DNA from: Candidatus Omnitrophota bacterium
Lineage (GTDB): Bacteria; Omnitrophota; Gorgyraeia; B26-G9
Direction: 5' to 3'
Assembly: GCA_043805415.1 (NCBI GenBank)
Contig: JAZDHZ010000007.1
Location: forward strand, 93,786-157,785
Length of the DNA stretch: 64,000 nt
Shown here: positions 34,101-63,998 of the stretch, piece by piece
Layout: every line of letters begins with the position of its first letter
Numbering within the stretch: the first letter of the stretch is position 1
The notes under the pieces: generated by a model
The model's input: only the letters and a program-made list of their open reading frames with translations
Told to the model about the DNA's origin: nothing
The model's database searches: none
Translations under genes and position numbers: made by a program

Positions 34101-34715
34101 TTTTAAGAACGCTTCAGCATCACTATCAATGCCCTGATAATCAATAGTAGCTTTACCTATATTTTCAATTTTATTAAAAGCACACCCTGTAAAACCTGAT
34201 ATAATAACAACTGCTGTTAAGAAAACGACCGCTCTTCTTAACGGTGAAGGGACCTTGGCGGTAAATAAAATTGAAAACGCTGCAGTAATGGCTATTATTG
34301 CTGTTATTATTGACAAGTTCACAATAACCATTCCCCCATTTACAAAAACAGAACCTCCAACCAATATAGCCCAAAAATATTTTGAGCTTGTAGTTTTCTT
34401 CACCCCTACCAGTATTGTATTTGCCAACTGGTCTGCAATCTTATTAAATTTCATTTTTGAATTACGCTGTGTTTTGGGAATTTTTTGATTAGCAGTTTTC
34501 TGAACAGCTGCCTTAGAAGTATTCATCTCATAAAGTCTGCTGAAACCCGCATTAAACATCTGCTGTGTGATTTGAACCGGAGCAGCAAGTGTATCGGAAT
34601 TTTTTTGCAGATTAAGTTCTGTGCCCCCTGCCCAGGCGATATCAAGCATTAGAAATGAATTAATTAAAACTAAACATATTAACTTAAACCACAAACAATC
34701 AACTAATTTTTTCAT
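31140..34715 (-). CDS. Large signal-peptide, multi-TM, HEAT/PBS-repeat protein with a C-terminal DUF218 (YdcF/ElyC/SanA)-like domain (1191 aa)
   Basis: N-terminus ...FLMLDIAWA|GGTEL; HEAT-like repeats (ALGELRSEKAVEELI, ALGKIGNKKAEEHL, LAGLGDEKAKF); TM segments; K/E-rich coiled coil; DVLLLCGNDDIGTFKETLRLYKAGKIKKILLTGGYG resembles DUF218. Confidence 0.45.
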   Translation of the reverse strand: MKKLVDCLWFKLICLVLINSFLMLDIAWAGGTELNLQKNSDTLAAPVQITQQMFNAGFSRLYEMNTSKAAVQKTANQKIPKTQRNSKMKFNKIADQLANTILVGVKKTTSSKYFWAILVGGSVFVNGGMVIVNLSIITAIIAITAAFSILFTAKVPSPLRRAVVFLTAVVIISGFTGCAFNKIENIGKATIDYQGIDSDAEAFLKTSKEMKSFKQLAAILENENEPEENRVQAALKLSKLRHKNVESTLIKQLNAFKIVNITGKSGLEFGYIHPIKIDRLPANKLRAAVAWALGELRSEKAVEELIFASTKKDNYNDYPLLNNYISAHWPKYTDLIDSSANVQINCILALGKIGNKKAEEHLKTRMLNNGNWQVDYAVLSVLAGLGDEKAKFYEAIFRNDVSFGVSVNSIAKQIIREYQEKGLEKQIREYLIEVFVSGYKWRWYDLDSNRRNQMTAAVLLKFLGGEEVDRIFAKVSKETENVNLEYDVRVFYEQLLAENHNYFIASLDVRQRIKNLSIEERVMLLTRIENLIELDEEETSIIKSFFFRENEMKFSLRDRLKREIPMLKNGILKEIAAVKGIEEILGGILDTRGKSSFNWELIEKFKEYGSNDSKKADPKAVEKASKKGKGLHKNSTLKSLFIPALLAPALIALSSKFSWAGDGILPMTALSTDAWYLGVPFIVIAVTLIHRRITRNRRLLSKRNRIVERLKTLENEEPERKVYSTVPDGAYVSGETIYGPNGWGEYDANLGPAWRYVGRPQEAIDKDLKREKAELAKVEKRLKKIIAKDEKKEEEHKNPVKPIDKVEEEKPMSSTKPVYQPQTETLISVKSLLNAQSSTFNELNADVLLLCGNDDIGTFKETLRLYKAGKIKKILLTGGYGRLTLPLLKSAQKMGFNIRINKDIVINSTDDLTMLQLAGMENPVDLDVLDAQPDRSEYKKVIPLSESEIIYQIMNALAKMLDIDIAPDDLYLETTSTNTPENFKLAMPYLEQIKKDLGKDEIKVAYMQVPYQQFRTKATFNRFKDEWKDMGVTGISYTTDWDTSKLSQEQIIEMAALESGRLIIYSAKGDLVPLYGDQQGLDAVPDEYWKQLTHAVFNLNPDAKEKLKQSLFNLSLGVKIDGERVFQTEKGLRDYLDAKGVVANVWLDSFINFIYTQSPKQVIVDQSLTFGMIKPADLNLNSGLALVGQAI

Positions 34716-34840
34716 AACTTTTCTCCTCGTTAAGAATTAAAGCTCTTTATAAAGATTACAGAAAATGCGATAAAGTATACCATGAGTTTTGGGATAATGC
34801 AAATGTGTAACGATTTGATAATAAACGGTTTAAGGAGTTA

Positions 34841-34945
34841 TGAATTATAAGTTATGGGTTGGCGAGTTTGCCAGTTAGGAAAGCAGCGAGTAGTGTTTAG
34901 GACTTAGCGTAAAGTGATCCATAGTCAATAGCTAATAGAAAAATG
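34841..34945. repeat. Intergenic repeat element, copy 2 (TGAATTATAAGTTATG ... ATAGTCAATAGCTAATAG)
   Basis: Exact 18-mer ATAGTCAATAGCTAATAG at 34921..34938; 5' sub-motif matches 641..656. Confidence 0.55.
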
Positions 34946-35037
34946 GAAGATGGGAAAAACTAAAAAAGTTTATAAATAAAACCAGAACTCGTGAACGCGC
35001 TAACGCGCAAACTGGTTAACACTATTGGTTAACACTA

Positions 35038-35151
35038 CTAATTTACATTTACCAATTTACCCAGATACTCTCCCACTAATTGATTATCTTTTACTTCTTC
35101 ATACCCTTTGATTATTAATATTAAATCCCGAACAATCTGCCCATTAGCCAT
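35038..35151 (-). pseudogene. Remnant of a PilZ-paralog 3' end (37 codons), immediately downstream of AbiEii
   Basis: Minus-strand translation MANGQIVRDLILIIKGYEEVKDNQLVGEYLGKLVNVN*; the last 17 aa match the C-terminus of the 37540..37899 PilZ protein (KDDQDKQLVNEYLGKLLNIN); shares the 14-mer aatttacccagata with 37567..37580. Confidence 0.5.
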
Positions 35152-35159
35152 AATGTAAA

Positions 35160-36059
35160 TTATTCTGTTACCAGTTCAAACCTAGTCCCACTTTCCATAG
35201 CGTTATTAATTCTGGTAAGAGCCTTATCTAGACTGAAATTATCCCGCTCATTGAGCGACAAAACATCAAATAGCTCTGCTTCAATGCGTGAATTCATATC
35301 TTTTATTTCTTCATCTGATCTGCCAAGATTTTTTCTGTATTTAACTAAATCTGTATCGGCATCATCCTCCTGAAGTTTCTTTTTAAACAGCGTCATTACT
35401 TCTTTATCTGCTAAATCAAACTTATTGCGAAGAATAAAGTCAATATCGTAGAAATCGCGCGGAGCTATAATTTGACGTGTCGCGCCTGCGCGTAACTTTT
35501 CTGAAACAATCTCTTTTAGTGACATACACTGAATCTCGCCACTAGCAAACAATGGCTCATCAGTAAAAGAGTGTTTGAATTTATGCTGTACCGCTCTTTT
35601 TTCAGTGTCTAAAATAGGGTTAAATTTCAAACCTACTTCAAATTTAATTGTCTGCTCAGAAAGTGTTGTAACAGAATCATATACGATATGGTACACATAC
35701 TGCTTTGATTCATTTCTCCCGGGATTACCGGCATCATCAATCCTCATGCTAAATTGCTTCACAAACCTCTCAATACCATTCTTAACCGGCTGGATGCATT
35801 TACGCCTCTCACCTCGTGTAGCTTGATACCGCGGAAGCATCATACTAAAATCAAGATCTTCACTCAAACGATAATATGAATAATATATCTTATTGAGACA
35901 GGTTCCTCCTTTAAAAATAAGATTACCTGACAATTCATGTATACGAGAAAGCAGTAATGTTAAATAATAATCTTTTTCTATCAGCGGCGCATAAAATCCC
36001 GTTAATGACGCGATACGATCAATAAGAATAAAAAATTGTTCTTTATCTTCGTGTATCAT
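35160..36059 (-). CDS. abiEii: AbiEii-family nucleotidyltransferase toxin (type IV TA / abortive-infection AbiE system)
   Basis: N-terminal hallmark IEKDYYLTLLL...LIFKGGTCLNKIYY...RLSEDLDF (KDYxL...FKGGTxL...R.SEDxDF); ~300 aa; overlaps the upstream AbiEi gene by 17 nt. Confidence 0.75.
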   Translation of the reverse strand: MIHEDKEQFFILIDRIASLTGFYAPLIEKDYYLTLLLSRIHELSGNLIFKGGTCLNKIYYSYYRLSEDLDFSMMLPRYQATRGERRKCIQPVKNGIERFVKQFSMRIDDAGNPGRNESKQYVYHIVYDSVTTLSEQTIKFEVGLKFNPILDTEKRAVQHKFKHSFTDEPLFASGEIQCMSLKEIVSEKLRAGATRQIIAPRDFYDIDFILRNKFDLADKEVMTLFKKKLQEDDADTDLVKYRKNLGRSDEEIKDMNSRIEAELFDVLSLNERDNFSLDKALTRINNAMESGTRFELVTE

Positions 36060-36856
36060 TAATAATAATTCTCCATTTTTTATTTAACGTACCTTTTCTT
36101 GATTCTGACAATGAGGCAATCGACGTTTCTTTGACACTTTTTACAAGTGATCTCAATAATAGATCACTAATTCCACATTTTTCCAATATGTACCCCATAT
36201 ACTTACGAGTCTTTATATTGGGAAACCGAGTCGCATAGTCAATAAGCGTTTTTATGTCACATTTTTTTTCTGTTACAAACCTCTCTACTATCTGGCCTGC
36301 GGCAAAAAAACCGCCTACCGGCTTATTAAAATAAATAAGATCAACCAATGTTTTTTCTTTTGAACTAATGCAAACATTAACGCCTCTTATAATTTTTTTT
36401 TTCAATCCCATACATTTGAGCCCGAGACACATTTATAAACTTAAACAGAATTCCCGCAATCTTTTTTTCCTTGCTCAAGCTCGTATTAAGAACATACACT
36501 TTCTGGAATTGCTGATCTGTAAAGCTGTAATAGTTAAACATTGTAGAATATCCAATATAGTAATCCCCCTTAGGAAAATAAATTGATGGTATTATAAACT
36601 CACTAATACGGCGTCCTGTAGGAACTGATTCAAGAGGAACAAATATATATATGCCGCTTTTAATAGGAATTAAAATATTTTTTGTTTTTAACCTGAATAC
36701 AAGTTGTCTTCTATAAGAAAAATCAGCAGGCAAAAAAGCATCCAACTCTTTTGCTGTTACGATCTCTTTTTTTTCATAGACAAGCCGCGCGATAAGTTCT
36801 GTCTCTGTTTGACTAAGCGAACTAAATGTTTTTTTATTTGGCATATGTACCCCCAC
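36043..36856 (-). pseudogene. abiEi: AbiEi-family antitoxin/transcriptional regulator, interrupted by a -1/+1 frameshift in an A10 homopolymer (T-run 36393..36402 on the plus strand)
   Basis: Two overlapping ORFs: 36377..36856 (N-terminal wHTH-like LVFRLKTKNILIPIKSGIYIFV) and 36043..36432 (C-terminal ...CISSKEKTLVDLIYF...). Removing one A from GAAAAAAAAAAT fuses them into one ~270-aa AbiEi (GIEKK|IIRGVNVCISS). Confidence 0.65.
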
Positions 36857-37330
36857 AGTTACATTGAACTAACGATAATACATTAATATAGTAACATATA
36901 AGACTTATAAGTCAATGGAAAACTGTATTACATGGAAAACTGTATTATTAAAGCCGCAAAAAAATGCTCATACTATAATTCTTTATATTAATTACCTCTA
37001 CTACATTATTAATATTCAATCCTAAACAATCTGCTCAAAATAAAAAGCACACAAGAGCAGCGTATAGCGAAAAGGAATGTTCATTAGTTAAAAGTTTATA
37101 AAGTGAAAGGCGGAAAGCGTAAACTACTTAGCTGATGGCTCTTGGGAAAAACAGGAAAAACAGATAGAGTAAAAGTTTGTAAAGTTCTCGAGTTTAGCGA
37201 TTGGCGGGTCACAAGAAAAGTCACCAGGACACAAAAAAAATAGTATTGAGCATTGCGTAAAACCGAAGGATGAGAGACGATCGCTGCGCTAGGACGACGG
37301 ACGGAAAAGCAGGAAGCATAAAAAACATGC

Positions 37331-37368
37331 TGGCTCATGGCTAATAGCTGATAGCTAATGGTCAATGG
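37331..37368. repeat. Intergenic repeat element, degenerate copy (tggctcatggctaatagctgatagctaatggtcaatgg)
   Basis: Same GCTAATAG / TCAATGG building blocks as the copies at 601, 34921 and 37971. Confidence 0.4.
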
Positions 37369-37476
37369 TAAAAAAATAAAGAAAATAGTATTGCGTATCG
37401 CGTATTGAGTATAGCGTAAAGCAAAAAGAGCTTAGCGGATATCCCTTCGACTTCGCTCAGTGTAAAGATTACAAGC

Positions 37477-37511
37477 AAAAAAAGCATGAAGCTTATTGCT
37501 AGCTTCATGCT
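37477..37511 (-). terminator. Rho-independent terminator downstream of the PilZ gene (also a weaker plus-strand terminator)
   Basis: Perfect 11-bp stem agcatgaagct/agcttcatgct with a 7-nt loop; preceded on the plus strand by AAAAAAA, i.e. a U7 tract after the hairpin on the minus strand; lies 30-60 nt past the 37540 stop. Confidence 0.65.
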
Positions 37512-37539
37512 TTAAAGTATTTTATACTAAATATTATAA

Positions 37540-37899
37540 CTAATTTATATTTAATAATTTACCCAGATATTCATTAACCAACTGTTTATCCTGGTCGTCT
37601 TTCCACCAGGAAAAACTAACTCCGGTTCGATACATTCCAGCATCTTCGGTTATCCACTCCACCTTACCGAAAACCCGGATTGTACTAATATCCTTGCTCA
37701 GGCGCAAGTCAATGCTTAACGGCGTGCCAATCGGTATTCTTTCATTGGAAACCACTCCCGCGCCAACCATGCTGATATCGCGCATGGAATATTCTGCGCT
37801 GTTCCAAAACCTGAACCATACCTGAGGGTCAAGCGGGCGAAGACTTATTGAACTGTTCTTAGCTTCCTTGCGTGCGCTATTGCGTCTATCCTTATCCAT
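37540..37899 (-). CDS. Small stand-alone PilZ-domain protein (paralog of 12626..13009)
   Basis: RRNSAR (RxxxR-like) and DISMVG (DxSxxG) motifs; collinear with the 12626..13009 protein. Confidence 0.6.
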   Translation of the reverse strand: MDKDRRNSARKEAKNSSISLRPLDPQVWFRFWNSAEYSMRDISMVGAGVVSNERIPIGTPLSIDLRLSKDISTIRVFGKVEWITEDAGMYRTGVSFSWWKDDQDKQLVNEYLGKLLNIN

Positions 37900-37920
37900 T
37901 GTGATTACTCCTTTATCAGC

Positions 37921-37993
37921 CTATGGCTGATAGCTTATGGCTAATGGCTCATAGCTTATAGTTTTTTACTATTGACTATTAGCTATTGACTAT
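37921..37993. repeat. Intergenic repeat element, copy 3 (inverted orientation) between the giant-ORF stop and the PilZ gene start
   Basis: 37971..37993 is the exact reverse complement of ATAGTCAATAGCTAATAGTCAAT (= 601..621); flanked by tagcttatgg / ctaatggctc units. Confidence 0.6.
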
Positions 37994-38024
37994 CGACCTG
38001 GTGTCCGTGACCTTGTTTCTGCTT

Positions 38025-41000
38025 TTAAATCGCATTATTAACAAGCTCTCTGGTATCTTCCGGTGATAACTTCTTATCGACACCAGGGATTGCAGCATCC
38101 AAAGCATCTACAGTTGCCGGATCAGCCTCAGGCTTAATTATCATTTCTGGGGTTAAGTCAATTATCTCTTCCCCTTCTTTAGCATCAGGCTTACCGTCTT
38201 TTACCATATCAGTAGGCTCAGTTACTTCTTCCTCTGAAGCCTGGATTTCTGCCGGTGCCGGAGAGATAGCTTCATCGTTTATTGATGATGTTTCATTTTT
38301 AAGAGTATAAGTTAACAATTCTGCCTTGGCTAAAATACCTGTTAAAGTGCGGATTGCCTTTTCAATGCCTTGTTGTTCCCAATATTGTGTTAACCTGTAA
38401 GAATCTTCACGGAATTTTTCGATTTGTTTACCTGCATACTCCATAATATCCTGAGGAGTATTTAGTTTTTTTCTATCTCCCCCATCAAAAATAATATGCA
38501 TACTATCATAGTATCCAATTCTGTCTGATAACTCACCCCACATAAAATATATTTCTTGGTTAAGCGCTTCTATTTTCTGCTCCAGACTTTGCTCGGGCTT
38601 TGTTTCCTCAGAAGAAACCTCAGCAGCTTGTTCTGTAGCATCAGCTGGCTCCACATTTTGATCTGCGCTTACTGCGGAATCTGTTTCATCTGTATTATAA
38701 CTTGTATCAGTTACCGCAGCAGGCAGATTATTTCCACCATTTTGATCCTGCGGACCATTAGGTGGCTTACTATCAGTAGATGATTGACCTTGGCTAGCAG
38801 CAGCTTCTTGGGCTTTAGCCTGCTCAGCTTTCTCTTTATCCTCTTGTTGTTTTCTAATCTTAGTATCTTCCGCTTCACCAAGTTTCTTAATTTCAGTCTG
38901 TATGGCGATACCTAATTTATTATCCACGTCTTTTTTAATCTGCACAGAATTACGCTTTGCAGCAAACATCATATCTTTTGCTGCCTGATCATCTCCTGCC
39001 AAATCCTTATAGCTTTCTTTAACTTCGTCCGGCATAATTGCCCACAAAGAATCTTTAAGCAGTTTTTCATTACTTTCCTTGCTTATTAAATTATACATTT
39101 GCAATGCCGTTTCGCTATTTTTGCTGATCAGCTCCTGGGCGATCTTGGCTGGTTTTGCGCCTTCTCTGTATTCTTCAATCTGCGCTCCATCTACATTCTC
39201 AAAGGTCAGGATTTCATCCTCTGCCTCTACCTGCATCCAGAAAACTATTTTATTAAATAAATAAAGTTTTGCCTGATCTTTATTAAATGCTTGCACAAAA
39301 CCATTTGGAATCATATCCTGAGCAGTCATCAAAGCCAGCAGATCTTCAACTACTTTTTCTTTCGCATCCAAAGCATCATTCCGCGCGCCTCTTATACCTG
39401 TTCTATTCTGTGCAATAAAATCATTTACCGCACTAGTGATAAGAAATTTTCCGTCATAGACTTTACCAAATTGACCAAGATAAACATTTTCAAAATATTC
39501 TTGCATGAGTTTTAAGAGCGATGCTTTTGGATTTTCCTCCTTATTCAAAACATACTTAATATAAGGATCTACGCCAACAGCATTCCAGATCAAATCAATA
39601 TTATCCGGCACCTGCATAGCCAGAATTAATGATTCCATGTTATTTAAAACTAATGCAGGGATATTATCCTGTTTAATATCATTAATCAGATATTTCATGA
39701 GCTGATTCGCAATAATCTCTTTCTGATTGTCTTGATATTTCTCTATTATAGTATTCTGTTTACTTGAGATTGCCTGCTTTAAATTAGTTATTTCATCTTC
39801 AATCGCTTTTTGACGCGAAGCATCTTCTGTTATTTTAAGCTCTTTCTCAAGAGCGCTGAGAAGCTTCATTCTCTGGTCAATTTCTTTATTTTCATTTGCT
39901 CCGGTAGTCAATACTATCATCTGAAAAACAATACGCTCAAGATCATCTCCAGCTTCATTCCATATAACCGCATACAGGTTTTCTCTTAATTTGCTAAGCG
40001 CTGTTTTGTATTTCTTCTCTATTTCTTTTTTCTCTTCATCGCTGCCTGCGGCTTTTAACTGCTTATTGAATGCCTCGTTTAATGTAATCTCCCGCGGGAT
40101 CAGTTCCTTTAACACGTTTTTGTATTTAAATACGATCATAGGCATATCAAAATCAACCACCCTTTGATATTGACTCTTTATTGTTTCATCAGTTTTTTTA
40201 TTTAATTGTTCAAGCAGGTACTTGTTTATTTCCTGTTCATCAAAATTATTAGCCATAAGCAGAAAATATACAGCTTCCTGAGGTAATTGCTGCCAAAGAG
40301 CTTTAATTGATTCCGCTTGATTAGCGATATATTCATCCTGAGATATTTTTGACCCGTCCTTATTCATGTATTGAACGCGGTTATCGATCTCTTTTTGTGT
40401 GAATGCCGATAGTTTTTCCGGTAAAACAATGTTTTCAAAAGCAAATTTATAATTATTAACAAACTGCGCATCAGCAGTAAACAGCTCTGCGAATAAGGCT
40501 TCTGCTGCCTGTTCTTGATCTATTTGATAATCATTTGACCAGAGTTTCTTTTGATCCGCGTCTAATTTGTTCCATATCTCTGTCTTTAATTTATTTTTAA
40601 GCTCTACATCTTTTTGTTTATCCGCTATATATTTACCAATATCGCTTTTAATTCCTTGATATTTCGCATCTAAAAATATCTTGCCCAGAATATCAATCTT
40701 AGACATTTGTTTCGCGGCAATCAGCGCATCTGCAGCTGCTTTTTCCAAACTAAATTTCTCTGTTGTTTCCTTCTGGATTTGAGCACTTTTCGCATCAAAT
40801 TCTTGCGCTTTATTTATTTTCCCTTCTAACTCCGCATTCCGCAAATCCTTAGATCTCTGGAAGAAATAGCTCGGACGCGGACTATAGCGCTGAATAATTC
40901 CTTCAAAAACCAAAAAGCCCAAGAGTAGACCTAATCCCGCTATAAAATTCGGCGCGAATATAAGAATAGCCAGAAACTCAATAATATAACGCGCCGGCCG

Positions 41001-44000
41001 CACCCCGGCATCCTGGGCTTTTTCCCATTTTGCTTCATCATATTCTTGAGCGCTATACTTGGGAGTCATCATCAAGCGCAATGCCGGATATAAAATTGCC
41101 AGTGTCCACAAAGGCGCCGCGAACACGATAAAAGAAGCAAAATAAGAACTGGCCACTAAGGTGGCTACGAATGCTAAACCAAAAATAATATACGGCGCCG
41201 CAAAATAATTTCTGTCAAAAAATTGGCCATCTTTAAATAGCGGGACCCCGTGGGCTTTAAGCCAAGCTTGCTTACCGCGCCACATCGGACGGATATAAAG
41301 ATTTTTAATTCCGTTGAATATTCCGGAGAAGAATGCCTGATCCCACATGCTTTGATCGCGCTCTGACTTCCAGGCATCGCGCAAGGATTGAAATTTTGTC
41401 TTGCCTCTAGACTTCCACAAAGTACTGAACACACTGCCAGCACCTTTTAAAATTCCGGATTCAACTACATAGGTAAGAATATAAGGCCCAAATAACCAGC
41501 CAATCAGCGCGAAGAAATAAAGGAACCAGGTGGAAATAAGCATAGTGGTTACCGGAACAATAAGCATTGTAATCGGCAGGAGTATGGCCGCGATCTTTGC
41601 CGGCCAGGTCGCCAGGCTCTGACGGTAATATTTATTAAAATCCTCGTTCATTGTCTTAAGCCGTACTTCTTTTTCTGTGTAAAGAAATACTGGTCTGGCA
41701 TTAACCCCTTCGGCAATTCCCTGAACCACATAATGAGGAATAAGTATATTAAAGAAAATAAAATTCTTCGCGATCCCGGACAGAGTTACCCATATCCCTT
41801 TAGCATAACTGCCTTCGGATGCAACGTGTGCCCAGTAGGCAGGAAGATTAATCGCTTCAGCAAAGACAAAGCCGACAAATACCCAGAAATAAGGGAAGAC
41901 TAAGGCTAGGAACGGATTGACTGGAGCCAAAAGCCCGGTAAGAATAAGCCCGATGGCTGTAAAGGCAACCACGCATAGAATAACCAGTGGTTTTTTCCAA
42001 TAATGCCAAGCAGAAATAACTGTTCCCCATTTTTCATTCCAAGGGATTATATTACTGCTGATAAAACGCTTAAACTGGCGCCTCATAAGAAACTCCACAC
42101 TGCCGGCAGCCCATTTTGCCAGAGGAACTAATAAATCACTGAGAGACGGCGGCATACGCCATTGGAGTTTCATATATTCCACATGTCTGGTAACCATGCC
42201 GAAAAGCATAAATAGCAAAGCGCTGATCAGATCTTCAGATACATAATCATCCTGCAGCCCTTCGTATTTATACATAAAATCTCTTCGATAAACACCCTTA
42301 CCATAATAACCCAGAGTATCCACAGTTTCCTTAATCCGCATTACCGAACTCTGCCATGCCTTTTCCGCGAGTGCCAGGGCGCGTCCGATTGAATTAAGCT
42401 TTTCCACAAAAATCGTAACTGTAGTCAAAACAATCCCTAATTTGGGATTACGGTTGAATTCTGTTAAGACACGGAACATATTCGGCGTTTCTTCATAATT
42501 AATTTCAAGATGCGTATCCATACCCCAAACAATCTCACCGCGCACATAAGGCTGGGCAACAGCAGCGTCACCATATTTGGAAAAACGGATCTGATCGCCC
42601 TCAAAATCACGAATCTGCCCCTTTGGATCTCCTTTAGCAAGCATATGCGTATATTCACCATTATAGCGCTTAAAATCAAGCAGGAGTTTTCTTACCTGCG
42701 CATCACTTATATTCAGACTCTTAATATCCTCTTCGCTCATGGTATCAAAATTAATATTCAGGAATTGATCGATTGCCGGGCCTTTACTTTTTACCAGATT
42801 ATCTGTGGCAAAAAACTGGAACTTCAAGGTTACCAAACGCTGATATTCTTTGGCGGTTTGCAGATAATAAGACAGTTCATCAGCTGTTATCTGTGCTGCC
42901 TGAACAAACAGTTCTTTTTGCCGAGTATCAAGCGCCTTACCTTGCGCATACATCTGGCTTACAGCTGCCAGCTCTTTGGCTAATAAATCCGTGGAATCAG
43001 ATTCAAAACCCAGAATTCTAAATCTATTTAATATAACATCCAGCTGTGCTTTTGTTTGCTGATAACGATTATTTTGATAAAAATGCTCCACATACTCACG
43101 GTAGCGCTGGCGCATATAATGCTGCGACTGGACCCAGCGCCAGGTTGTCGGCATGCGGTAATTTACCCAATCCTCGATCATGTGAATAATTCCGTCAAAT
43201 ACTTCTATTCCCTGAGGCTGGGTTAGTTTTGCGCGAAGCTGCGCGATCTTTACATCTAAAGCTGCTTTTTCTCTAGAGCCCGGCATTGTTGAAAATAATA
43301 CTACTAATTCTTCCAGCGCAGCCTGATCAGCTGCATTGAGTTTGCCTTTTTCTCTGGTCCAATACTTCTGCAATAGAGCTATTTGGTTTTCATATTCATC
43401 TCTAAACCGTTGCGTCAGATGGTGGAATTTTGACGCCTTTTCCCCTTTTTCTATTCGAATAACCTCATCAAGAAAATAATAGTACTTTTCTCCTCCTCCG
43501 GCTAAAATAAAGATACTGAATACCGGCAGTTTTTCAAAGCCTTCAATGCCAGGCTGGAATCTAAAATAACCAGACATAAACCTGAGCAAACGCTGATTAG
43601 CCTCTTGATTTTTCGGCCTAGACAACTTCATCCGGTCTAACTTTGCTTTTACTGCTTCAGCATCAGTCATCTCATTCGCCGTGAACAGATAATCATTTCG
43701 TTCCTGCTCACTGATCTTTGCCTGTTCAAGCAGATGATTAATCGCGTCGTTCCAGACCTCAACCCTTAATTTACCCGAGAAATCTTCGACTTTCAGCTGA
43801 TTATTATCATCAATAAAAATCTTTTCAAGCCGGCCTTTTAAGCGCTCCGAACGCCAGGTAAATATTCTTCCGGTTAAAGGCGCTATCTTCTTGCTAAAAT
43901 GCACAGTCCAGGCGATAAAAAATGCGCCGATTTCCTTGATCGAAAAATAGGTCAAAGGCAAGAACAGCAAAAACGGCAGAACAGTTATAATGGCAAAACT

Positions 44001-47000
44001 AATTCCAAATCCCAGGCCAAGAGAACTGGTAAGCGAGCTGGCCCAAAGCATTCCGTAACTTCCAACAACATAACCCATAAAAATATTATACAGCACTGTG
44101 ACAATCATTGTCTGGCGCCAAAAACGTTTGGCCTTTAATGTCTTTAAACCAGCTGGGCCTTTTTCCGTGCCTTTGGTCCAGAAACGGTCTTCTTGTCCAA
44201 AATTAAAATTAGGATTATATTCAGAATTAAATTTTTCTATTCTATCTTTATATTCAGAAGGTAATAATTTCAAAAATAAATTAAGATAATCCGGCTGAAA
44301 TACTGTTACAATAAACGCAATAATCACAATCACACTCACCAATAAAACACTTGGAAAGAATAACGAAAGCAATCCACCAATAATAATCGTCGCGACAGTT
44401 GACAAAGCTCCGATAGGGCTAGTAAATTTATTCAGCCAATTAGCAACTTTAGTATTTTTAGCAATAGTCTTATTCGCCAATGACACAAACGGAACCATGA
44501 GTTCCCCAAAGAAGGCGATCCAGCCAATTTTATACATTTTAAGATATGTTTCATTATCTTTCAGGGCTTTATTCACTGCTGGTTTAAGCTTTGTATCCAC
44601 CAAATTCTGTATAAGCTCAGACGCTTTTGCCTCAGCGTCTTTGGCTTCTTTTGGTGTTTCTTTTAGCGGCTTTTTGGGAAGCGCGCCTAGTTCTTTGCTC
44701 AGATCAATATCCAGTTCTTTGATCGGGTCCTCATAATAACGGAACAGATCATCCATATCCTCTTGCCCAAAAAGTATGGTTGGATCAGCCAGCAATCTGC
44801 CGGTTACAGTAACTTCTTTCCTTCTATATCGCTCCAGCTTGCTCTGAATCTGATCAATAATAACCCTTCTCCAGAAACCAGCATGCAAACGCATCAGACT
44901 GACAATCTCGCTTTGTTTATCAACCTTATAAAGCGCATATGATTTGCGCATCAGGTAGCGAATTAATGGTGTACGACCAGATAAAGAACTGCCTAATCCA
45001 TAAGGCTGGCGATAAGGCAGCATAAACACTCTTTCCCACAGCTTAAACCGCAAAAGATTCGGAGTTTTCTCACCTTCAAAAGCCTCACTTTTCATAGCAT
45101 TCGCTTTATCCAGACCGATTAATTCAGGTTCCTCTATCTCAAATTCCTGATCATAAGTACCGCCTTGGATTTGCCTTATTCCATAAGGATTTTTTATTAA
45201 AACAGATAAAATTTCAGCCAGGCGTTCTCTGACGATACGATCGTATTCAGCTGTAAATTCTCCACGTGTATCAATATCAGCAAAATATTTATTGAGGTAT
45301 GGACTAAAAGCCGCGTCTATGCATTCTTCAATAATATAATAATCAATTGCAGAAGGGATTCTCTCATTATTTTGCAGTTTTTGGATAAGATCGTTAATTA
45401 CAGCTTTAAATTGTTCAAGGGTTAATAATCCAAGTCCTTCTTTATCATCTAAAAGGTTTTTAACAATTGAAGCAATCGGCGGAGTAAACATCGCGTCAAA
45501 GGAATCTTTTGGTTCCGGCAGTTTATCAGACAAAACTTTATTAAGTTCTTCAATACCCTTATCCGCGGCTAAAACTATCTCCTTCAGCTCAGCTATTACC
45601 TGCAGTCTTGATTCGCCGGAACGGGGCGGGGCGCGCAAAAGATCGCCTGAGCCGAAAATTGTATTAAGTATTTTATAATCAATACCCTGCTCATTTAAGA
45701 ACTTCTTTGCCTGATCAAGAGTTGCAAATCCTTTTTTCTTAAGATCATTAGCCGGCAATTCCTGAGCAAATGCCGTTGCCGCTGATATTGCTATATCTTT
45801 GTCAACTCCGGCAGCAGTCAACATTTTCTCCAGCTCTTTTTCATTTGTTCTGTTCAGCTGCTGCAGCCTTAAATTCGCATCATCATAGAAATCAGGGATT
45901 ATATCAGCAACCACAATATTATCCAGTATACTTGCCTTGGTTTCCGGATCAACTTCTTTTTTATCAAGAAATTCACCCAGAGCAGCTTCATCCATAAAGC
46001 TTTTTTCTTTGCGTCTTTGGTATACTATTTGGCTTGCTATATATTTTGCATTGGTTTCTGCCTGCGATAAAAGTTCTTCTCTTTGAGCTTCACTCAATTT
46101 ATCATCTTGCGCGGACTGTTCTATTTTTTCCTTATCAAAGATGAGGTTTACAATCTCATCTTCGTTCATGAGATTGATATTGTTCTTGCCTTTTTTCTTT
46201 GCCTTGTCTGCCTTTTTCTTCCAGACCAAGCCAGTAATAACATTAGCACCTACTAAATAAACCGCTAAAACAATAGGAATCACCAACCATGGAAAATAAA
46301 AACTAGTAAATGGAAGTCTGACTTTATAACTAAATACCTGTACAAATTTAAACCCTAAACCTTTGGGGCCAATAGTTACTTCCCGCATTTGACTGTCTTT
46401 ATCAAGATATTTTATTTTTACTCCATCGCCCTGAAGATCATCTTTCTTTTTCTGCTCGTTTGCCTGAGCTAATAATTTCTCAAATAATTTTTCGTCTCTA
46501 AACTTCTCGCCTTCTAACTTAATATGAAACAGTTCCAGTCCGCGTTTGCCCATATTGGCAGTCTGACTGATAACATTATTCTGAAATTTATCAAAATATA
46601 GCCACCAAAGCTGACTATTGATCATCTTTTTGCCTTCAAAAGGCACTGCTTTATCAGAAAAATGCTCTTTTTGCGACAATCCCAAACTCTGATGCATGTT
46701 TGCCCCTTTAATCAGCGGGCTGCCATTGCTTAAAAGCAGTGCTTTCTGTCCGCTTAACGAGGACAACCAGGAGGACAACCAGGACGTGCTGGTTTCGCCA
46801 ACTGAATCGGTAAGCACAAATGTATATGCATTCTGGTCATGAATACTATGATGGATTTCATATGGATGCCAGTTTTTGAGCCCGGCATTAAGATTATCGA
46901 TAACTTCCTCAGGATTATGTGAAGTATCATCACGCAATGTTGCCACCAGGTTCTGGCGCTCATCAAAAACATCGATTCTCCATCTGGGATCTTCACCCAG

Positions 47001-50000
47001 CATTTTCTTGGATATCTGGAACTTGATTCTGCCATCAGGATAATACAATGTTCGTACTTGAGCCAGCTTATCTTTGCGCATATCTTCGATATCATAAACC
47101 ATAGTCGCGTCAGGACGTAAGAAAAGATTTTTTGAATTAGCCCGAGGTTTAAATTTAGCTTTAAAGTCTTTAACTATCTGTTCTGTTGATAAACCGCTTT
47201 GCATTAAAGCTGGATTAAAATCAAAGGTATTGCTGCCCTGTGATAATCCCATATTTTTCTCTTTAAGATACTCAAGAAAAGTTACATATGTTTTTTCAAG
47301 CTCCATCAGCTTAATTTTGTCCTCGGGTCCTGACTGATAAGTACGGTCAACATAACCGTTAAATATGATTTCAAGCTCGCCTTTATTATTCTTGATTTCC
47401 ATCCACATCTGAAGCACTTTCGGGATATCCGCTGCATTAGCATCCTTAGGAGCAACAGCAATTGTCGCTGTCCGTTCCCTCATGCCTTTATCAAGCAGTG
47501 TGATAAATGCTTTATCTTTAGCATTGGAAGGATCTAATTGAATCTTCATTTTTCCCTCAAGACCAGCAAAGAAAGCAACCACATCCGCATCATCTTTAAA
47601 CCCGCCTGTCTTATATTTCTCATCAATCATCTTATCAACAATATCTTCCGCAGTACCCTGTTCCGTGCTTGTTATATCAATTAATTCTTTTATTAGATTT
47701 GCTCTGGATGCCGGCAAACGGAACAATACCCACGAATCTTCAAACTTTCGCTCCATCTTATCGGCTTTTGATTCATTTATTCCTAAGGCAGCGTTTTTGT
47801 CTTCAGGAACAAGTGTCTTTATAACCGCATAATCAACAGCGCCTGTTTTTCTGGCAAGATTAATTGCTTTTGAATAGTTAAACAATGTCCAGCCTTGTTC
47901 AGTTAAAAAAGCTGTTGTAACATCAGCAATTCCAAATTTACCATAATCAGTATCAAATCTTGCCCGCAATTGCATTATGCCTTTAAAAACTTTTTTAGCA
48001 TCCCAATATCCCCAGATATGATTTATAACTCTTCCCAATCTATCCTTTGTTTTGCGATAATGCACATCTGCTTTTGAGAAAACCTTATCGCCATCTCTAG
48101 TGAATTCTGATTTCCAATACTCGATTCCTTCATATTGTATACTGCCTTGCTTATCAAGATACCTATCTATGGAGGTCAGATGGTCAGCATACAATGCCTC
48201 TTTTGCTTTAGCTTCATCACTGTATCGTTTAAGCCATTTAGCTTGCTCTTTTTCACTTAGCTTATCCCAGAATTCCTGCTTTTTCTTAGCTTTAAACAAA
48301 GTTTCTTTTGCCGCAGCTTCATCACCTTTAGACTCTTCAAGTAATTTGTTTCTGTCTTCAATACTAATCGTATCCCAAATTGCTTCTTTTTCAATCTCAA
48401 TAAGCATTGACCTGCTGACTTTTTCCTCAAATAATCCGCTGCACATACCAGCAAGCTGATCCTGAGTAAAAGCCTTAAGATTAAACTGATCTTTCTTTTT
48501 ACTAGCTGCTATTATATCTTCAGCTATATATGCCGGTGAGATAAACCTGAGGATTTCTTTTTGATCGCTGTAATCTGATTTCAGAATACCCAGAACAGCT
48601 TTATGGAAATTATCAGCAACAATAGCTTCGCCGCCAGCAGCAGTTATTGCCGCGTTAAAAGCAGCGAGTTTTTCACCACTTAAAGTTTCCCTGTATACAT
48701 TTAAAGCCGCCCTTGCTTTGTCAAAAGTTGTTTCACCTAAACTCTTAAGAATGTCCGCGTTAGAGCGGAAGAAGAAAGACTCTCCTCTATTGGCAATACC
48801 AGCCGCATCCAGATCATCATCTTCAAAATAAGAAAATGACATTATATTTCTTTTGAAAGATTCGTACCTTAACGCCTTTTCCGACGTCAATAAACCATCA
48901 AATAAGATAATAATTCTGCCTTTATTATCTTTTACTTCCTGATAATCAAGGTTTCTCTTTCGTTGGTGCATATGGTAAATAACATTTCCTCTTTTATCTA
49001 TAAATTCCAAGTCTGATTTAGGCACATTTGACCCGGAATTAAACGGCGCGATCTGTGATTCTGTGATTAATGATTCTCCCTGATCAAATTCATGATTGAT
49101 ATTATAAGCAAAGTATTCTAAAAGCACATCAGTCACGGCAATTGTCAGCGCCTTCTTATCAGCTTTCAAGTTTGAAAGCTTCTCAAGTCCCGCGATTATT
49201 TTTTTGGCGTGATATTTCCCCTGTGTATAGTTTTCTAATTTAGCTTCAATCAGCTTAGCATCAGTTCCGCTGTTAATTATAATATCCACGATTTCAGGAG
49301 CAAGCTGATTAAAATCAATTTCTTGTTTTTTGTTTTCCTTGTTATCAAAATAAAAATATGATTGAGAATTAAAAGCAAGACCTAAAGCTCCTAGATTCTC
49401 CTTGTATTCATCAGGCCAGTCATAATTTAATTTAGAAACCCAAACCCAAATAAAATTACCATTAAATTCATATCCTGAATATTTAACCCGGATATTGCCC
49501 TTATTATCCTTTAAACCTTGCCATAACAGTTTACTCTTAGCATCATAGATTAAGGCCTTTACATATCCAGCATCATTAAGGTAATCAGTTTCTTTAAAAA
49601 CCTGCATGATAATATTTCTAAAATCATTATCTTTTAAACCTTTAAGCTTAAGCTTATTTAACTCTTCCGCAATGCTCTGAGCAGTAATAAACGCGTTTTC
49701 ATTGATTAATTTTTCTGTTGCCCGGATAATTGATTCATGTAAAGTTTTAAGTGTTTCAGCGTCAACAGTTAGTTTTAGTTTTTCTAATATTGGACTTAGC
49801 TGCTGCATCTTTAAATTAAGCAAACTACTAACTTTAAACTCATCTAAATTTTTATATTCATTGGTATCAAATTTCTGTAATATTGATAATGCCAGTAATT
49901 TATTTTCGCCTTGTTCCAATAAATTCATATCAGGATTAATCCCATAGTCATAATTCTTATCATATAAATACGTGCTGCCCAAAGTAGCTATATCAAATTT

Positions 50001-53000
50001 CCCCAAACGCTGCATCGCGCTTCTGATTTCAATACGCATCAGTTCTGGGTCTGTAATCCCCAGAGTTTTCCAGGCTTTGGCCATCTTTCCGGCAATAAAA
50101 TCAAATAGTCTAGGGTCATCATCATAATAGAATCTGGTTGATTTTTGCGGCACAAATATTCCATCTATTTTTTTACCGTCAATAGAAACAAGTACGCGGC
50201 CATGAGCATCTTTCACTTCTTGCCAAACAAGCAGAGTTCTCTTATTATCCAGCTCAACAATCATCTCGCCTCTATTGTTGAAATAATCGCTCAACTGTGT
50301 TCCCGCTTTGCCTTTATGCGGCTTCAGTACAGAAACTGAAACCGGCATGGCTGGTTCTTCTTTTGTGGTTTTATCAAGCAAATAAGTTTCACCGGACATG
50401 GCAAACCCAACCCGGCCCAGATCATTCATAACCTTTTCATTTACGCCTAATTCACCGAACTTATCCTGCTGATAAACATAATGGTATTTTGTTACTTTTA
50501 TCGGATAGTATTTATTGTCTTTGCCCTTCTCATAATCATATACTTTAATCGGACGCCCAAAATTATCTTTTATTTCTTCCCAGGTAAGCTGCTGTTTAAG
50601 ACGGACATTCTGTATCGAGATATTTCCCTCTTTACTGAAATAGTCTTCCACTTTAATAAGTTTGCTTGCCTTAACAATCTCGGTAAGCTCCGCTTGTGTG
50701 ATTTTAACTTGATATTTAGTCCCTAATAATTCTGTTAATGCTTTAACCGCTTCAAGAAATTTCTGCTCATCAGATTGTTCCAAAGCAGATACTTTATTTT
50801 GAATATCCCTTAATAACTCTTTATTCTCGGGAGCTAACTTTAATCCCGCGATAATCTTGCCGGCTAGTGTTTCCATGGTATTTAATGTTGAAAAAGCAAG
50901 TACTTCTGTATCCTCTTTAGTATCTTGATCATAAAGAAAAGTAAAACCATACAAAGCAATATTCCGGCGGCCAAGCTCATCCATTATTTCCTGGGATTTA
51001 CCTTCTTGAAGCTTGGGCAGCTTCTTTTCCCAAGCATCAAGAGCTGCTTTAAGTTCAGGATGCGCCTTGCGATAGTTATTAAAGCTTTCATAATCATAAA
51101 AATAATATGTTTTCTGATTCCTGAAAAATTCGCCGTTTTTCACAACTCCATCAAATTTAACCTGTATTTTTCCTGTGCTGTCTATCTGTTCCTCCCAATG
51201 GAGATTATTTAAAACATTTTTCATTTCCACAAGCACTTCGCCGTTATTATCGATATAAACATCGCGCGTCTTTTCCCGGCCCTGGACATCTCGGTAAGTT
51301 TCCTTCCTGTGTTTTTTAATCCGGGAAACCGACATCAGCGCGGTTTGCTCGTTCTTCTCCTGGTCATAAATATAGGTAGCGCCAATAAGCCCTACTCCAA
51401 ATTTTCCGTAGCGGTTCAGGTCGCTGACGAAACTATCATTAAACATATCCTGTCCGGATTTTATATATTCATCAACAACCGCTTTAATATCCGCGTCTTT
51501 GCCTGCTTTTTTCCGATAAGTTTCCAGGGTTTTCTTAAATTTGTCGCTCAGGATATCCCAGCCTAATTTTTCATATTCAATAATCAGCTGCCTGTAAAGT
51601 TCCGGGTTTTCTTTGCTAAATTGCTGAATTTGCTGCAAGCTGTAGAAAAAGCGTGAGGCCTGCGCCTTTTCAAAAACTTTTGTCTGCACATCAAGTTTGC
51701 CCAGGTACCGGATTATTGTTCTTCCCAGATTATCAATAAGGTCCTGACGGGTCATCCGCTGGTTAGCATTGGTCATCTGAACAAGTATGTTCCCCTGGTC
51801 ATCAACATAACTCTCTTTAATTTTTTCCGTATGATCTTTCTCATCAATATAAGCCTTTTTAAATTTCACCAGGAATGAATGTCCGACTAATCCGCCGGTT
51901 TTACCGGTTTTAGCATCGTAAGTATGGGTTTCTCCAATCATCGAAACACCATAAAGCCCGAGAATATCCATGTCCAGAGCAAAACGCGCTTCAATCCCGT
52001 ACTTTTCAGCAAGGTCTTTCTCATATTTGTAGTGGAATGTCGTTACTTTTTCAGGAATAACTCTTCCGGTTTGTTTATTGAATTTTCCGCTGTATTTAAT
52101 TTTTACGCGGCCATTACCGTCAATCACCTGCTCGCTGATTTCTTTCTTTTGCGCGTCTTTATTTAAGACCTGAACATTGCCGTCTTTGGTTAAATATTTG
52201 CCGTTCGCGTCTGCTTTTACCACTGAACCAGCGACCAAATCAAAAGGCACCGCTGCTTTTTCATCAAAGCTGAAAGTCGCGCCAATAAGCGCGATGTCAA
52301 TTTTCCCCTGACGATTTAACTCTGCCAGCAATTTCTCATCTTCTATATTGATATTTAAAGTGCTTAGTTCATCCTTAAGCTTTTTATAAGCATCCGGGAA
52401 TCTCTTCTTAAATTGATTCAACTGGTTAACACTATAAAAAGAGTGGGAAACTTTTTCCCGCACAAACTGCTTTGTCTGAGCGTCAATATGCCCGTAATAA
52501 TCTACTGTCTTTCTTCCCAGATTGTCGACTAATTGCTGCCATACCAGCTTTTGCTTAGGAGCATACATCTGCAGCAATACATTACCTTCATTGTCAAAAT
52601 AACGTCCGTCTTTAAACGGCTGGGCAACAGACCTTCCCACTGGTTCATCACTTACTCTTATTCCCCGGCCATTTTCAAACTTATACAAATAAGTTTCACC
52701 GACCATGGCTACACCCTGCAATCCCAAAGTGTCCATTGTATCGGGATCAACACCAAAAGCATCAAACTGCTTCCGCAGTTCCCTGGACTTGGCATCTTCT
52801 CCGCCGGGATATTCATAGTAAAAGGTGGTTTCTTTTTCCACGTTAAAACTCATACCTGTTTGTGAATCGCGGGCATCAATCTCAAAGGGCTTGTTTTGTC
52901 CATAGGGGATTACCTGCAGCCGGTTTTCTTTACCAGTAGCTTCTCCCATGCTCCCATCATACTTTTTAATCAAGCGGCCGTATTGGTCACGCACTTCCAG

Positions 53001-62000: not shown

Positions 62001-63998
62001 GGAAAAAAGCGTCATTGCCGCGACAAAAGGAGCAAAAGAAGCAGTTGTGGTAAGTGTTTTTCGCCAAGCAGTTAATCCTACTGTTTTTCCAATATCTTTT
62101 AAAGACTGCCGATGACCAATAGCAATCGCATCAGCCATTTTAGTGATCGTAGAATCAACTTGCGATAATCTTTTTACTTGGGAATTAAGCGCCCAGCCAA
62201 TCATTACTGCCCCGATAGTCACCGCCACCAAAACAACCGGGCCTAAACCAAGAAACAAACTAACCGCGCTGCCAATAACCGGCAAACCAACCGCGCTGCC
62301 GACACCGCCGATACTTAGAGCTTTAAATACCACCCCGATTAAAACAGCAAGCGCGATATTTGCCGAGATCGCGACTGAAGCAGGAATTATCTTTACAGCT
62401 AATAATTTCACGCGTTCTGAAAAAGGAATTCGATTAATTTTCGCGGCTTCTGCTTGAGCTTGATTCATCTCTCCATCTGTCGGAGCTTGCTGAGCAAGCT
62501 GAAAAGCAAGCCCAATAACATTTTTACCCAGATCATTTGCTGTATCTTGTTTCGTCTGTTCAAAAGCAGCCGCTGTTATCCGCTTGATTTCCGCGTAAAT
62601 CATCTGCGGCCTTATAAACTGTTTCTGATATCCGGAACGTGAAGATATTTTCTCTAATCTATGTTTTTTCCATTCAGATTCACTTAAAAACCGCATCCAT
62701 TTCTGATCAACAATTTCTAAAGCGCGGTTTTTAAGAATATCTTCTATAATCGCGAACAAAGCTTTTTCCAGATTGTAATCAGCAGCTTCCAAAGCGCTAT
62801 TTATTGTTTGGGCTTCTATATTACTTAATCCAAAGTCATTGTTTAAAATTTCATTTATGATTAATTCATATTGAATTTCCTGTCCAAGATCAACTCTATC
62901 ACTAATCGCCTGAGCGATTTTTTCCTTGATTGATTCAATAACATTTCGCGGGATGCCCAGCGCCGTTAAATCCCCAGTAACTATGTTTCTTCTAAACATT
63001 ACATGCTCTCTGGCAAATCCTTGACCTTTGCCCGCGCCGCTGGCCTCTTGCCACAAGAACTCACCAAAAGATTTTTGTTCTTTCTCCATGTTCTGTTTAC
63101 TATCATTAATACTTTTTCGAATTGCCGAAACAACCTTCTGGCTCTGATTAGCTGACTTAGGATCATTAGTCATGATAAACGTATGCGGCTTACCAACACT
63201 AACCTTGCTGGTTAAATAAGCTAATTTCTCGGAAATAAGCTCTTTATAATTTAAAAAATCTTCCGGCGACCAGAACCCAAAAAAGAAACCTTCTCTGCCA
63301 TCTCGTCCGCTGCGGCCTCTTAACTGAATATCTGTTTCTTCAGAGGCATCGGCACTTAATGACATAACCACCATTTTATCGCCTTTAAAATCAACTCCGC
63401 GTCCGGATATATTAGTGGATACAATAATTACTTTACTATTTTTAGAAAGCTCTTCGACCTTGTCTTTTAACATTTTTGTATCTGAAGTGGCTTCATGATT
63501 TTTAGAAACAAATTCAATAATAACATTGTCCACAGCATTATCCGCGATCAGCGAATCCAAATCATCCAAAGTCACATTTTCAATTTCATTGCCTTTTGCA
63601 TCAGTAATCTTTCCCTCCTGAGTAATCCGCGCGATATTCCGCCGCGCCATGGCCGGTTTAGCCAAAAGTTTATCCGTAAAACTTGCTACCTGATTTTCAT
63701 CATCACAGCGGACAAGTACAGCTCCGGCTTGTTCAGGAAGTCCCCAATCAGACATTTTCCTTGTCGCGCTTTGATCTGTCTTTAGAACAACTATCGCGTC
63801 AATCGCGTTTCCGATTGACTCTTCTTGATCAGAACTCAGAATAATCTGTTCTTTTCTTTTTGAAACCTTATCTAATCCGCTAAGATCTTTAAACTCTAAT
63901 CCATAATTATCAGCTGTCTTCTGTCCAATGGTAGCAGAAGCAGCGCTAATTCCGGAAACAAGCCCCAAATTATCACTCAAAATTACCGGCAAAATCAT
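38025..63998 (-). CDS. Giant multidomain membrane-associated protein, partial (>8657 aa); the N-terminus lies beyond the window end
   Basis: A 25,974-nt ORF without stops in AT-rich DNA. Contains a SecA-like ATPase region, four or more TM clusters, an M23 peptidase, two LysM domains, seven or more ~190-aa tandem repeats, a Pro-rich linker and an acidic low-complexity C-terminal tail. Confidence 0.85.
   Translation of the reverse strand: [8657 protein letters not shown]
48900..52770 (-). repeat. Region of giant ORF encoding seven or more tandem ~190-aa repeats (G-[AV]-[MS]-[IV]-GET-[HY]-[LT]-Y ... L-x-W-[QE]-[EQ]-[ILV]-[KD]-D-N-[LKF]-G-R ... F-[YF]-Y)
   Basis: Repeat units visible in translation: [133 protein letters not shown], each preceded by a G(A/V)(M/S)(V/I)GETYLYD-like block. 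Confidence 0.6.
59210..59670 (-). other. Domains in giant ORF: two LysM peptidoglycan-binding modules separated by a TPEAKQL-repeat linker
   Basis: [52 protein letters not shown] and [52 protein letters not shown]. Confidence 0.65.
59990..60380 (-). other. Domain in giant ORF: M23/LytM-family metallopeptidase
   Basis: KGFDFNMP...YGNLVIVRH...INDHLHFE; the HxH motif is encoded at 60005..60019 (plus strand ttcaaaatgcagatg). Confidence 0.7.
62440..63998 (-). other. Domain in giant ORF: SecA-like ATPase NBD2 plus helical scaffold region (aa ~1-520 of the in-window ORF)
   Basis: [14 protein letters not shown] and [23 protein letters not shown] parallel SecA TNMAGRGTDI / [54 protein letters not shown]...Y..E parallels the SecA HSD block [36 protein letters not shown]. 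Confidence 0.55.

Follow-up and report, generated by a model that had tools for sequence, protein, structure and literature searches.

An assembled AbiEi antitoxin gene of a Candidatus Omnitrophota bacterium is split by a +1 frame break in a run of ten adenines

Results

Two neighbouring genes of a Candidatus Omnitrophota MAG, both deposited as 'hypothetical protein' (MFH1061687.1 and MFH1061686.1, locus tags V1747_02215 and V1747_02210), together make up a single gene for an AbiEi antitoxin. The two pieces are separated by a +1 frame break inside a run of ten A's, next to an AbiEii toxin gene that is full length. In our view this arrangement is best explained by replication slippage that recently, and in this lineage only, mutated the antitoxin gene of an AbiE toxin-antitoxin/abortive-infection operon which is intact in other respects; we assign this explanation a probability of roughly 0.5.

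The 64-kb stretch of DNA that was analysed (hereafter the window) bears closely packed genes, all of them on the minus strand. MFH1061687.1, MFH1061686.1 and the toxin MFH1061685.1 are encoded on one 182-kb contig of the MAG. As a side observation, this Omnitrophota genome also carries giant genes.

Direct reading of the window gives ten T's on the plus strand at 36393..36402, corresponding to an A10 homopolymer on the coding minus strand that lies inside abiEi and shifts the frame by +1 after codon K150. The 5' segment of abiEi (36377..36844, minus strand; MFH1061687.1) runs from an ATG at 36844..36842, which is extendable to a GTG at 36856, to a premature TAA at 36379..36377 and encodes 155 aa. 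Its product ends with ...MYGIEKK-NYKRR*, of which the last five residues (NYKRR) are out of frame, and comprises AbiEi residues 1-150, i.e. the wHTH and the first half of the C-terminal domain. The 3' segment (36043..36392, minus strand; MFH1061686.1) lies in the +1 frame, covers codons I151 to R266 and ends with a TAA at 36045..36043. This frame is open from 5' of the run up to that stop, reads ...KKK-IIRGVNVCISSKEKTLVDL... and encodes 122-129 aa, while the protein as deposited comprises 122 aa and starts from an internal ATG at 36411. If one base is removed from A10, a single ORF of 266 aa results. The frame is also restored by two additional bases, which leads to one extra Lys (267 aa); with one additional base (11 A's) it stays broken and a stop follows at once. 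Because the restored protein aligns without gaps across the junction, the frame switch can be placed inside the run, between K150 and I151. Thus the assembled gene is a frameshifted allele of the AbiEi family, in which no uninterrupted frame encodes both AbiEi domains. The original prediction had proposed both the split of an AbiEi gene by a frameshift in a 10-nt A/T run and its repair by deletion of one A. Both points were borne out: the T10 run separates the 155-aa from the 122-aa ORF, and the repaired frame has 266 aa where about 270 had been expected.

To classify the restored protein, COG5340, the Pfam families AbiEi_1/3/4 and the PADLOC AbiEi profile served as family references. The PADLOC profile PDLC02267 was matched with an E-value of 1.6e-44 by residues 10-263 on profile positions 2-242 of 252, and the match to Pfam AbiEi_1 was marginal (22.6 bits at a cut-off of 22.2). 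In total, 486 homologues were found at E <= 0.001, the best of which share 86-91% identity and comprise exactly 266 aa. The restored protein is collinear without gaps with more than 100 full-length homologues of up to 91% identity. Twenty-three close homologues, many of them exactly 266 aa long, are gapless over the junction, where ...MYGIEKK/IIRGVNV... in the window (the slash marks the junction) is aligned with ...MYGIEKK/LVRGVDV... in a homologue. Searching the PDB by sequence alone with the AbiEi profile gave no match and fold comparison was needed. An AlphaFold2 model of the restored protein (101 sequences, mean pLDDT 88.5) had 1ZEL (Rv2827c; TM 0.63, E 1.5e-7) and 6Y8Q (Streptococcus agalactiae AbiEi; E 2.5e-7) as top PDB matches in Foldseek. 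In this model the wHTH is predicted for residues 1-68 approximately and the C-terminal domain from near residue 95 onwards. The break after K150 accordingly interrupts a predicted beta-strand (residues 147-152) halfway through the C-terminal domain, and not at a domain boundary. The gene order is that of the AbiE family as well: abiEi (36844..36043) is located directly 5' of the co-oriented DUF1814 gene abiEii (36059..35160), a layout common to the related loci L001-L011 that are described below. Profile match over the whole length and modelled fold thus agree with the earlier assignment of the gene as an AbiEi adjoining AbiEii.

The toxin gene abiEii (35160..36059, minus strand; MFH1061685.1) encodes a DUF1814 nucleotidyltransferase of 299 aa, which was recognized by Pfam (PF08843: 99.7 bits, cut-off 22.5, E 3.3e-28) and by PADLOC (AbiEii: E 3.6e-38). 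It overlaps the 3' end of abiEi by 17 nt, and the identical 17-nt overlap is found in L001-L010. Wherever 23 homologues agree on one residue, the window AbiEii has it as well, including the positions of the NTase motifs I-IV. These motifs are defined as hG[GS]x15DhD with an Arg (I/II), K..R (III) and +DxxD (IV), and mutagenesis has demonstrated that their residues are required for toxicity (Dy et al., 2014, PMC3985639). In the window AbiEii, motif I/II reads FKG51G52...R64 L S66 E D68 L D70 F (G51 G52 x15 D68-L-D70, with R64), motif III reads E K188 L R A..R195 and motif IV P R201 D202 F Y D205. The only departure from near-invariant columns that was noted is the conservative exchange of R145 for K. 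MenT4 (6Y56) was matched weakly and at the level of motifs. Judged from its sequence, the AbiEii toxin is full length and its catalytic motifs are intact, which settles the state of the catalytic residues that the original prediction had named as a point to verify. A disabled toxin as reason for the survival of the cells was consequently rejected.

For a detailed comparison of the run itself we used 91 loci, 80 from species-representative genomes and the eleven loci L001-L011. The nearest relative at the DNA level is L011, a 3.2-kb JGI contig with 92% nucleotide identity over the cassette. At the site of the run it reads GGG ATT GAA AAA AAA CTT ATA AGA GGC (A8-CTTATAAGAGGC), L001-L010 read ...GAA AAA AAA CTC GTA AGA GG (A8-CTCGTAAGAGG) and the window reads GGG ATT G-A10-TT ATA AGA GGC (A10-TTATAAGAGGC). 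The relatives hence carry GAAAAAAAA-CTT or -CTC (A8) where the window has A10. Since A8 is followed by C in the relatives, two events are needed to arrive at the window sequence: a change from CTT to ATT at codon 151 (Leu151 to Ile), which outgroup comparison places on the window's own branch and which turns A8 into A9, and the subsequent gain of one A. The site was scorable in 45 of the 91 loci, where the A-run comprises 2, 4, 6 or 8 nt and never more than 8; likewise, the longest A/T run anywhere in the scored intact abiEi homologues is 8. All of the genome loci (80/80) were matched over essentially full length and none is frameshifted. Given runs of at most 8 at the 45 scored sites and 80 unbroken loci, the slippery run is a private and recent feature of this lineage. 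The tract is therefore not a conserved slippery site or contingency locus, as all 80 related genome loci are unbroken. A cluster look-up found the exact window proteins in one NCBI MAG record and none outside it, and an exact-protein look-up of the window AbiEii in the contig index returned nothing. DNA pattern scans with a variable-length gap over the tract gave only the A8-C relative Ga0209633_10040057 in metagenome_contigs and nothing in genome_contigs.

Compared to L011, dN/dS amounts to 0.12 before the shift, to 0.06 after the shift if the restored frame is used and to 0.21 for abiEii, and the 116 codons 3' of the shift are free of a second lesion. On the window branch we counted 7 synonymous and 6 nonsynonymous substitutions (3 + 2 in the N-terminal part and 4 + 4 in the C-terminal part), numbers that are too small for dating or for telling relaxed from constrained evolution since the shift. 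Because purifying selection is strong downstream and further lesions are lacking, the shift must have occurred very recently, unless it is not real. Judged from these values, the frameshift would be young if real, and the module is free of decay.

Besides the coding regions, the upstream elements of the operon seem to be in place. A consensus scan revealed a putative sigma-70-like abiE promoter at 36888..36915 (minus strand), comprising TTGACT at 36915..36910, a 16-nt spacer and TG-TACTAT ending at 36888; its -35/-10 region aligns with L001 and L015. The leader from the -10 element to the ATG (36845..36887, minus strand; AATGTATTATCGTTAG..CAATGTAAC..GG.G.TACATATG) carries repeated ATGTA/TACAT motifs together with a G-rich ribosome-binding site. 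It is kept in L001, L011 and L015-L018, down to 76% protein identity, and might represent a candidate AbiEi operator. The -35 element is abutted by a perfect tandem duplication of TAATACAGTTTTCCAT (two copies; 36915..36947, minus strand; 16-nt unit, 17-nt period; family D16), a unit that L001 possesses in single copy. The 92% homology to L011 is limited to 36902..35154, which delimits the cassette, while the flank toward the gene of 1191 aa is about 79% identical. A 33-nt direct repeat (88% identity) flanks the cassette at 35111..35143 and 37005..37037, and the relatives' neighbours include IS200/IS605-type transposase and GIY-YIG genes. The limits of the cassette, the direct repeat and the transposase neighbours would fit a mobile defence cassette. 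Relatives of the window AbiEi were not found in viral_contigs, and thus we have no evidence of a phage-borne cassette.

No other homopolymer of the window is as long as the A10/T10 run. Under an iid composition model of the window, 0.67 runs of at least 10 nt are expected and one is observed, and for runs of at least 9 nt the numbers are 2.2 and two. Hence the length of the run itself is no statistical anomaly, while chance does not explain that the frame break falls exactly within it. Within 59.5 kb of unbroken ORFs we found 55 A/T runs of 7-9 nt (43 of 7, 11 of 8 and one of 9). The ORFs that bear them include one of 26 kb (at least 8657 codons), and the run of 9 is an in-frame T9 at 16175..16183. 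Since all 55 runs are in frame, the indel accuracy of the assembly is high.

Discussion

If the extra A is real, the history of the locus could be envisioned as follows. The ancestor would have carried GAA AAA AAA CTT (E K K L, A8), as the nearest relatives do, the C-to-A substitution (Leu151 to Ile) would have lengthened A8 to A9, and strand slippage on A9 would have added one A. The zero frame of the resulting A10 would terminate five codons on and leave a 155-aa product that retains the wHTH but only one half of the C-terminal domain, which is required for toxin neutralisation. For the AbiEi of S. agalactiae it was demonstrated that the C-terminal domain alone is enough for antitoxicity, that N-terminal fragments with only the wHTH are unprotective, and that truncations are unstable and without autoregulation (PMC3985639). 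Because such N-terminal fragments fail to protect, the 155-aa product is most probably inactive. The allele might consequently be on its way to a pseudogene, although a leaky hypomorph is more likely.

Leakiness would arise if RNA polymerase, and ribosomes on AAA-AAA-AAA, slip on A10: from a minority of transcripts that comprise 9 or 12 A's, complete AbiEi (266 or 267 aa, respectively) would be translated. Nine A/T suffice for efficient RNA-polymerase slippage in bacteria, and such slippage mostly adds bases (PMC5009743). Furthermore, an A11 run restores the frame of tssM1 of Citrobacter at 20-25% (PMC4256274), and ribosomes are reported to slide on AAA-lysine runs as well (PMC4363877). Some full-length antitoxin is thus probably formed by slippage on A10, provided that the mutation is real. 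However, given the bias of bacterial A/T slippage toward additions, the most frequent product, with one additional A, would run into a stop immediately, and only -1 and +2 would be productive.

According to the original prediction, an inactivated antitoxin next to an intact toxin would be toxic unless the toxin was impaired as well. This view overlooks slippage on A10 and two further aspects. First, AbiEi is reported to neutralise AbiEii by inducing auto-phosphorylation of the toxin (bioRxiv 10.64898/2026.01.19.700257). Since neutralisation is induced auto-phosphorylation, little AbiEi may suffice; from this preprint we infer that AbiEi could act sub-stoichiometrically, and even a small amount of antitoxin may keep the cells alive. 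Second, a constructed abiEi mutant of Mesorhizobium huakuii is viable, with poorer growth (PMC8436566). Lost AbiEi autorepression would at the same time raise transcription of the operon. One might further speculate on polarity of the premature stop on abiEii translation.

The strongest competitor of a real mutation is a miscounted homopolymer. In this case the genome would comprise A9 (GAA AAA AAA ATT) and encode an AbiEi of 266 aa, the consensus would be one base too long, and the operon would be fully functional with nothing unusual about it. Several aspects fit to such a sequencing or assembly artefact. No homopolymer of the window is longer than the one that contains the break, and length miscalls are concentrated in such runs. 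Downstream, the frame is fully preserved (dN/dS 0.06) and without decay, just as a miscount would leave it, while promoter, leader, toxin and 17-nt overlap are all intact. It is also biologically awkward for a toxin to remain intact when its antitoxin is broken. In addition, A10 lacks a second assembly in the collections queried, as the proteins occur in one NCBI record only. On a long-read platform, an error profile in which only the run of 10 is wrong and those of up to 9 are right would be plausible. However, not one of the 55 runs of 7-9 nt that were found in 59.5 kb of coding sequence disrupts its frame, the T9 and those of the 26-kb ORF included, and in short-read data the majority consensus is seldom wrong at a 10-mer. 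Moreover, +/-1 indels that arise by replication slippage in runs of at least 9 nt are among the most frequent spontaneous mutations, and accessory defence genes are commonly inactivated. A real +1 mutation and a consensus miscall are inseparable from the sequence alone; we put the former first and regard the latter as a serious, if somewhat less probable, explanation.

Mononucleotide runs of 9 or more in coding regions are a classical substrate for reversible slippage. Phase variation was proposed in the original prediction. In such a scenario, a tract flipping between 9 or 12 A's (ON) and 10 or 11 A's (OFF) would switch the supply of antitoxin and thereby the abortive-infection or growth-arrest state. 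The run is indeed located in the coding region of a defence-related gene where +/-1 toggles the frame, the tract was lengthened by a substitution in the window lineage, and the gene is without decay, as expected if it was often ON. However, the comparison with relatives speaks against this scenario, since so long a run is confined to a single lineage, where it arose from A8-CTT by substitution plus insertion. At all 45 scored homologous sites the run has at most 8 A's, no intact homologue contains an A/T run of 9 or more, and 0 of 80 loci are frameshifted. An alternation of ON and OFF among relatives was not seen either, as the only close relative is A8-C. Long runs are not enriched in the window (two of at least 9 nt with 2.2 expected), and OFF antitoxin combined with ON toxin would be a costly state without obvious benefit. 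Phase variation is therefore not supported and unlikely. Slightly less likely still, A10 might be a newborn reversible switch, in which a tract length that varies in the Omnitrophota population and RNA-polymerase slippage would together set the ratio of AbiEi to AbiEii and pre-arm, or partially trigger, the response in a subpopulation. If true, this would be the first toxin-antitoxin defence module whose tuning relies on a homopolymer within the antitoxin gene.

Evolved recoding or a functional split, i.e. separate polypeptides for wHTH regulator and antitoxin or a fixed ratio of short to long product by programmed slippage of the kind described for Thermus dnaX and Citrobacter tssM1, is very improbable: A10 is long enough for efficient slippage (at least 9 A/T, PMC5009743) and the C-terminal domain alone neutralises the toxin in S. 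agalactiae, yet the arrangement is unique among about 200 homologous proteins and loci inspected, with all relatives in a single frame, and the internal ATG at 36411 is, by direct reading, without a convincing Shine-Dalgarno sequence. The 83 nt 3' of the run fold no better than shuffled sequences (z = -1.0), which provides no sign of a stimulatory RNA structure, and an Rfam search of 34700..38050 at E <= 1 found no family, save a spurious tmRNA match of 12 bits. The split gene in particular was rejected because the break falls within a beta-strand amid the C-terminal domain and not between domains, and because no homologue is split.

Leaving the frame break aside, the locus resembles known systems in most aspects. 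Like the AbiE of S. agalactiae and MenA/MenT of Mycobacterium tuberculosis (for example Rv2827c-Rv2826c), it is a bicistronic operon in which the antitoxin gene precedes the toxin gene and overlaps it. As in AbiE and MenAT, the antitoxin is built of a wHTH and a C-terminal domain (the fold of 1ZEL and 6Y8Q) and the DUF1814 toxin possesses motifs I-IV. With 266 aa, the window AbiEi is nearer in size to Rv2827c (295 aa) than to S. agalactiae AbiEi (195 aa). In contrast to both systems, its frame is broken by the +1 in A10, and its host is an uncultured Omnitrophota bacterium.

With genes that use poly(A) slippage, such as the 'savior' cases of Buchnera and Blochmannia, tssM1 of Citrobacter rodentium (A11) and dnaX of Thermus thermophilus (A9), the window abiEi shares at least 9 A's at the frame change and a zero-frame stop shortly 3' of the run. 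However, tssM1 and dnaX are functional and a second slippery tssM is found in Yersinia, whereas the window run is confined to one lineage and very recent, and slippage on it is predicted. Unlike those slippage genes, the window abiEi would also need -1 or +2 products and not +1.

Phase-variable mononucleotide tracts are found in surface and restriction-modification genes of Haemophilus, Neisseria and Campylobacter. Such contingency loci share with the window a coding homopolymer, here in an accessory defence-related gene, in which +/-1 toggles the frame. In contrast to them, the window shows neither conservation of the tract nor enrichment of long tracts, and OFF would remove an antitoxin and not a dispensable surface or modification function. 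Taken together, we see at this locus an AbiE defence module of the standard type with an ordinary +1 in a homopolymer, be it a young mutation or a miscount, and not a new kind of system.

The main value of our finding is one of annotation, as MFH1061687.1 and MFH1061686.1 should be treated as one AbiEi gene. Beyond that, the locus illustrates how one synonymous-like substitution (A8C to A9) makes a harmless run of lysine codons a mutational hot spot. Should reads confirm the extra A, the locus would provide a modest case from nature of an antitoxin allele that leaks. Provided that this base is real, the allele would also be a natural experiment on the minimum of antitoxin that a toxin-antitoxin system of the phosphorylation type (Type VII) requires.

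Borders of the abiE cassette and neighboring repeats

The sequence surroundings of the abiE cassette suggest that it was inserted or exchanged as one unit, because repeats flank it and the identity to its nearest relative drops outside of it. A 33-nt direct repeat is present with one copy on each side (35111-35143 and 37005-37037, 88% identity), and the identity to L011, the closest relative at DNA level, falls from 92% in the cassette to approximately 79% beyond it. The repeat search furthermore delivered two similar stretches of 63 nt (35037-35099 vs. 37539-37601, 75% identity), the first of which lies downstream of abiEii and resembles the 3' end of a gene encoding a small PilZ-domain protein. 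This gene (37540..37899, minus strand; Pfam E-value 8.9e-10) is located just upstream of the abiE operon and is followed by a strong terminator-like hairpin with a 13-bp stem (37481..37513, minus strand). Between this gene and the abiE promoter lie about 500 nt of non-coding, repeat-rich DNA.

In the surroundings of the cassette and of the PilZ gene, a family of short intergenic repeats with TAGCT(N)AT(G/A)GCT(N)ATGG units is found in direct as well as inverted orientation. They occupy several non-coding stretches (34918-34938, 35138-35153, 37129-37145, 37328-37378, and 37914-37996; families D1, D4, I1, I2, I9, and I16 of the repeat search) and look REP-like.

Promoter, leader, and antitoxin alleles

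Adjoining the -35 hexamer of the putative abiE promoter, a perfect tandem duplication was detected (36915-36947; 16-nt unit with a period of 17 nt, TAATACAGTTTTCCAT on the minus strand). The related locus L001 comprises only one copy. The duplication is a second small lineage-specific rearrangement at the abiE locus.

The 5' leader from the -10 element to the ATG (36845-36887, minus strand) was aligned with the related loci L001, L011, and L015-L018, and its conservation extends to relatives with 76% protein identity. It contains the motifs ATGTA...ATGTA...TACAT. The leader is a candidate AbiEi operator unlike the one reported from S. agalactiae, which consists of 23-bp inverted repeats.

The AbiEi of L011 (JGI Ga0209633_10040057, 649..1398; 249 aa) is another altered antitoxin allele adjoining an intact toxin: 17 codons, corresponding to residues 228-244 in the C-terminal helical region of the window protein, are deleted in frame.

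Homopolymer runs outside the cassette

A giant gene on the minus strand (38025..63998) runs to the window edge as one continuous reading frame of at least 8657 codons and contains many A/T runs of 7-8 nt without any frame break. Giant genes of a similar kind have been reported for Omnitrophota.

According to a homopolymer count across the whole window, the sole run of at least 9 nt besides the A10 in abiEi is an A9 on the plus strand (16175..16183; T9 in the mRNA). Within an ORF of 764 aa it lies in frame close to the N-terminus, where it encodes ...KRFFFSGS..., and it represents a useful internal control for homopolymer accuracy at the read level.
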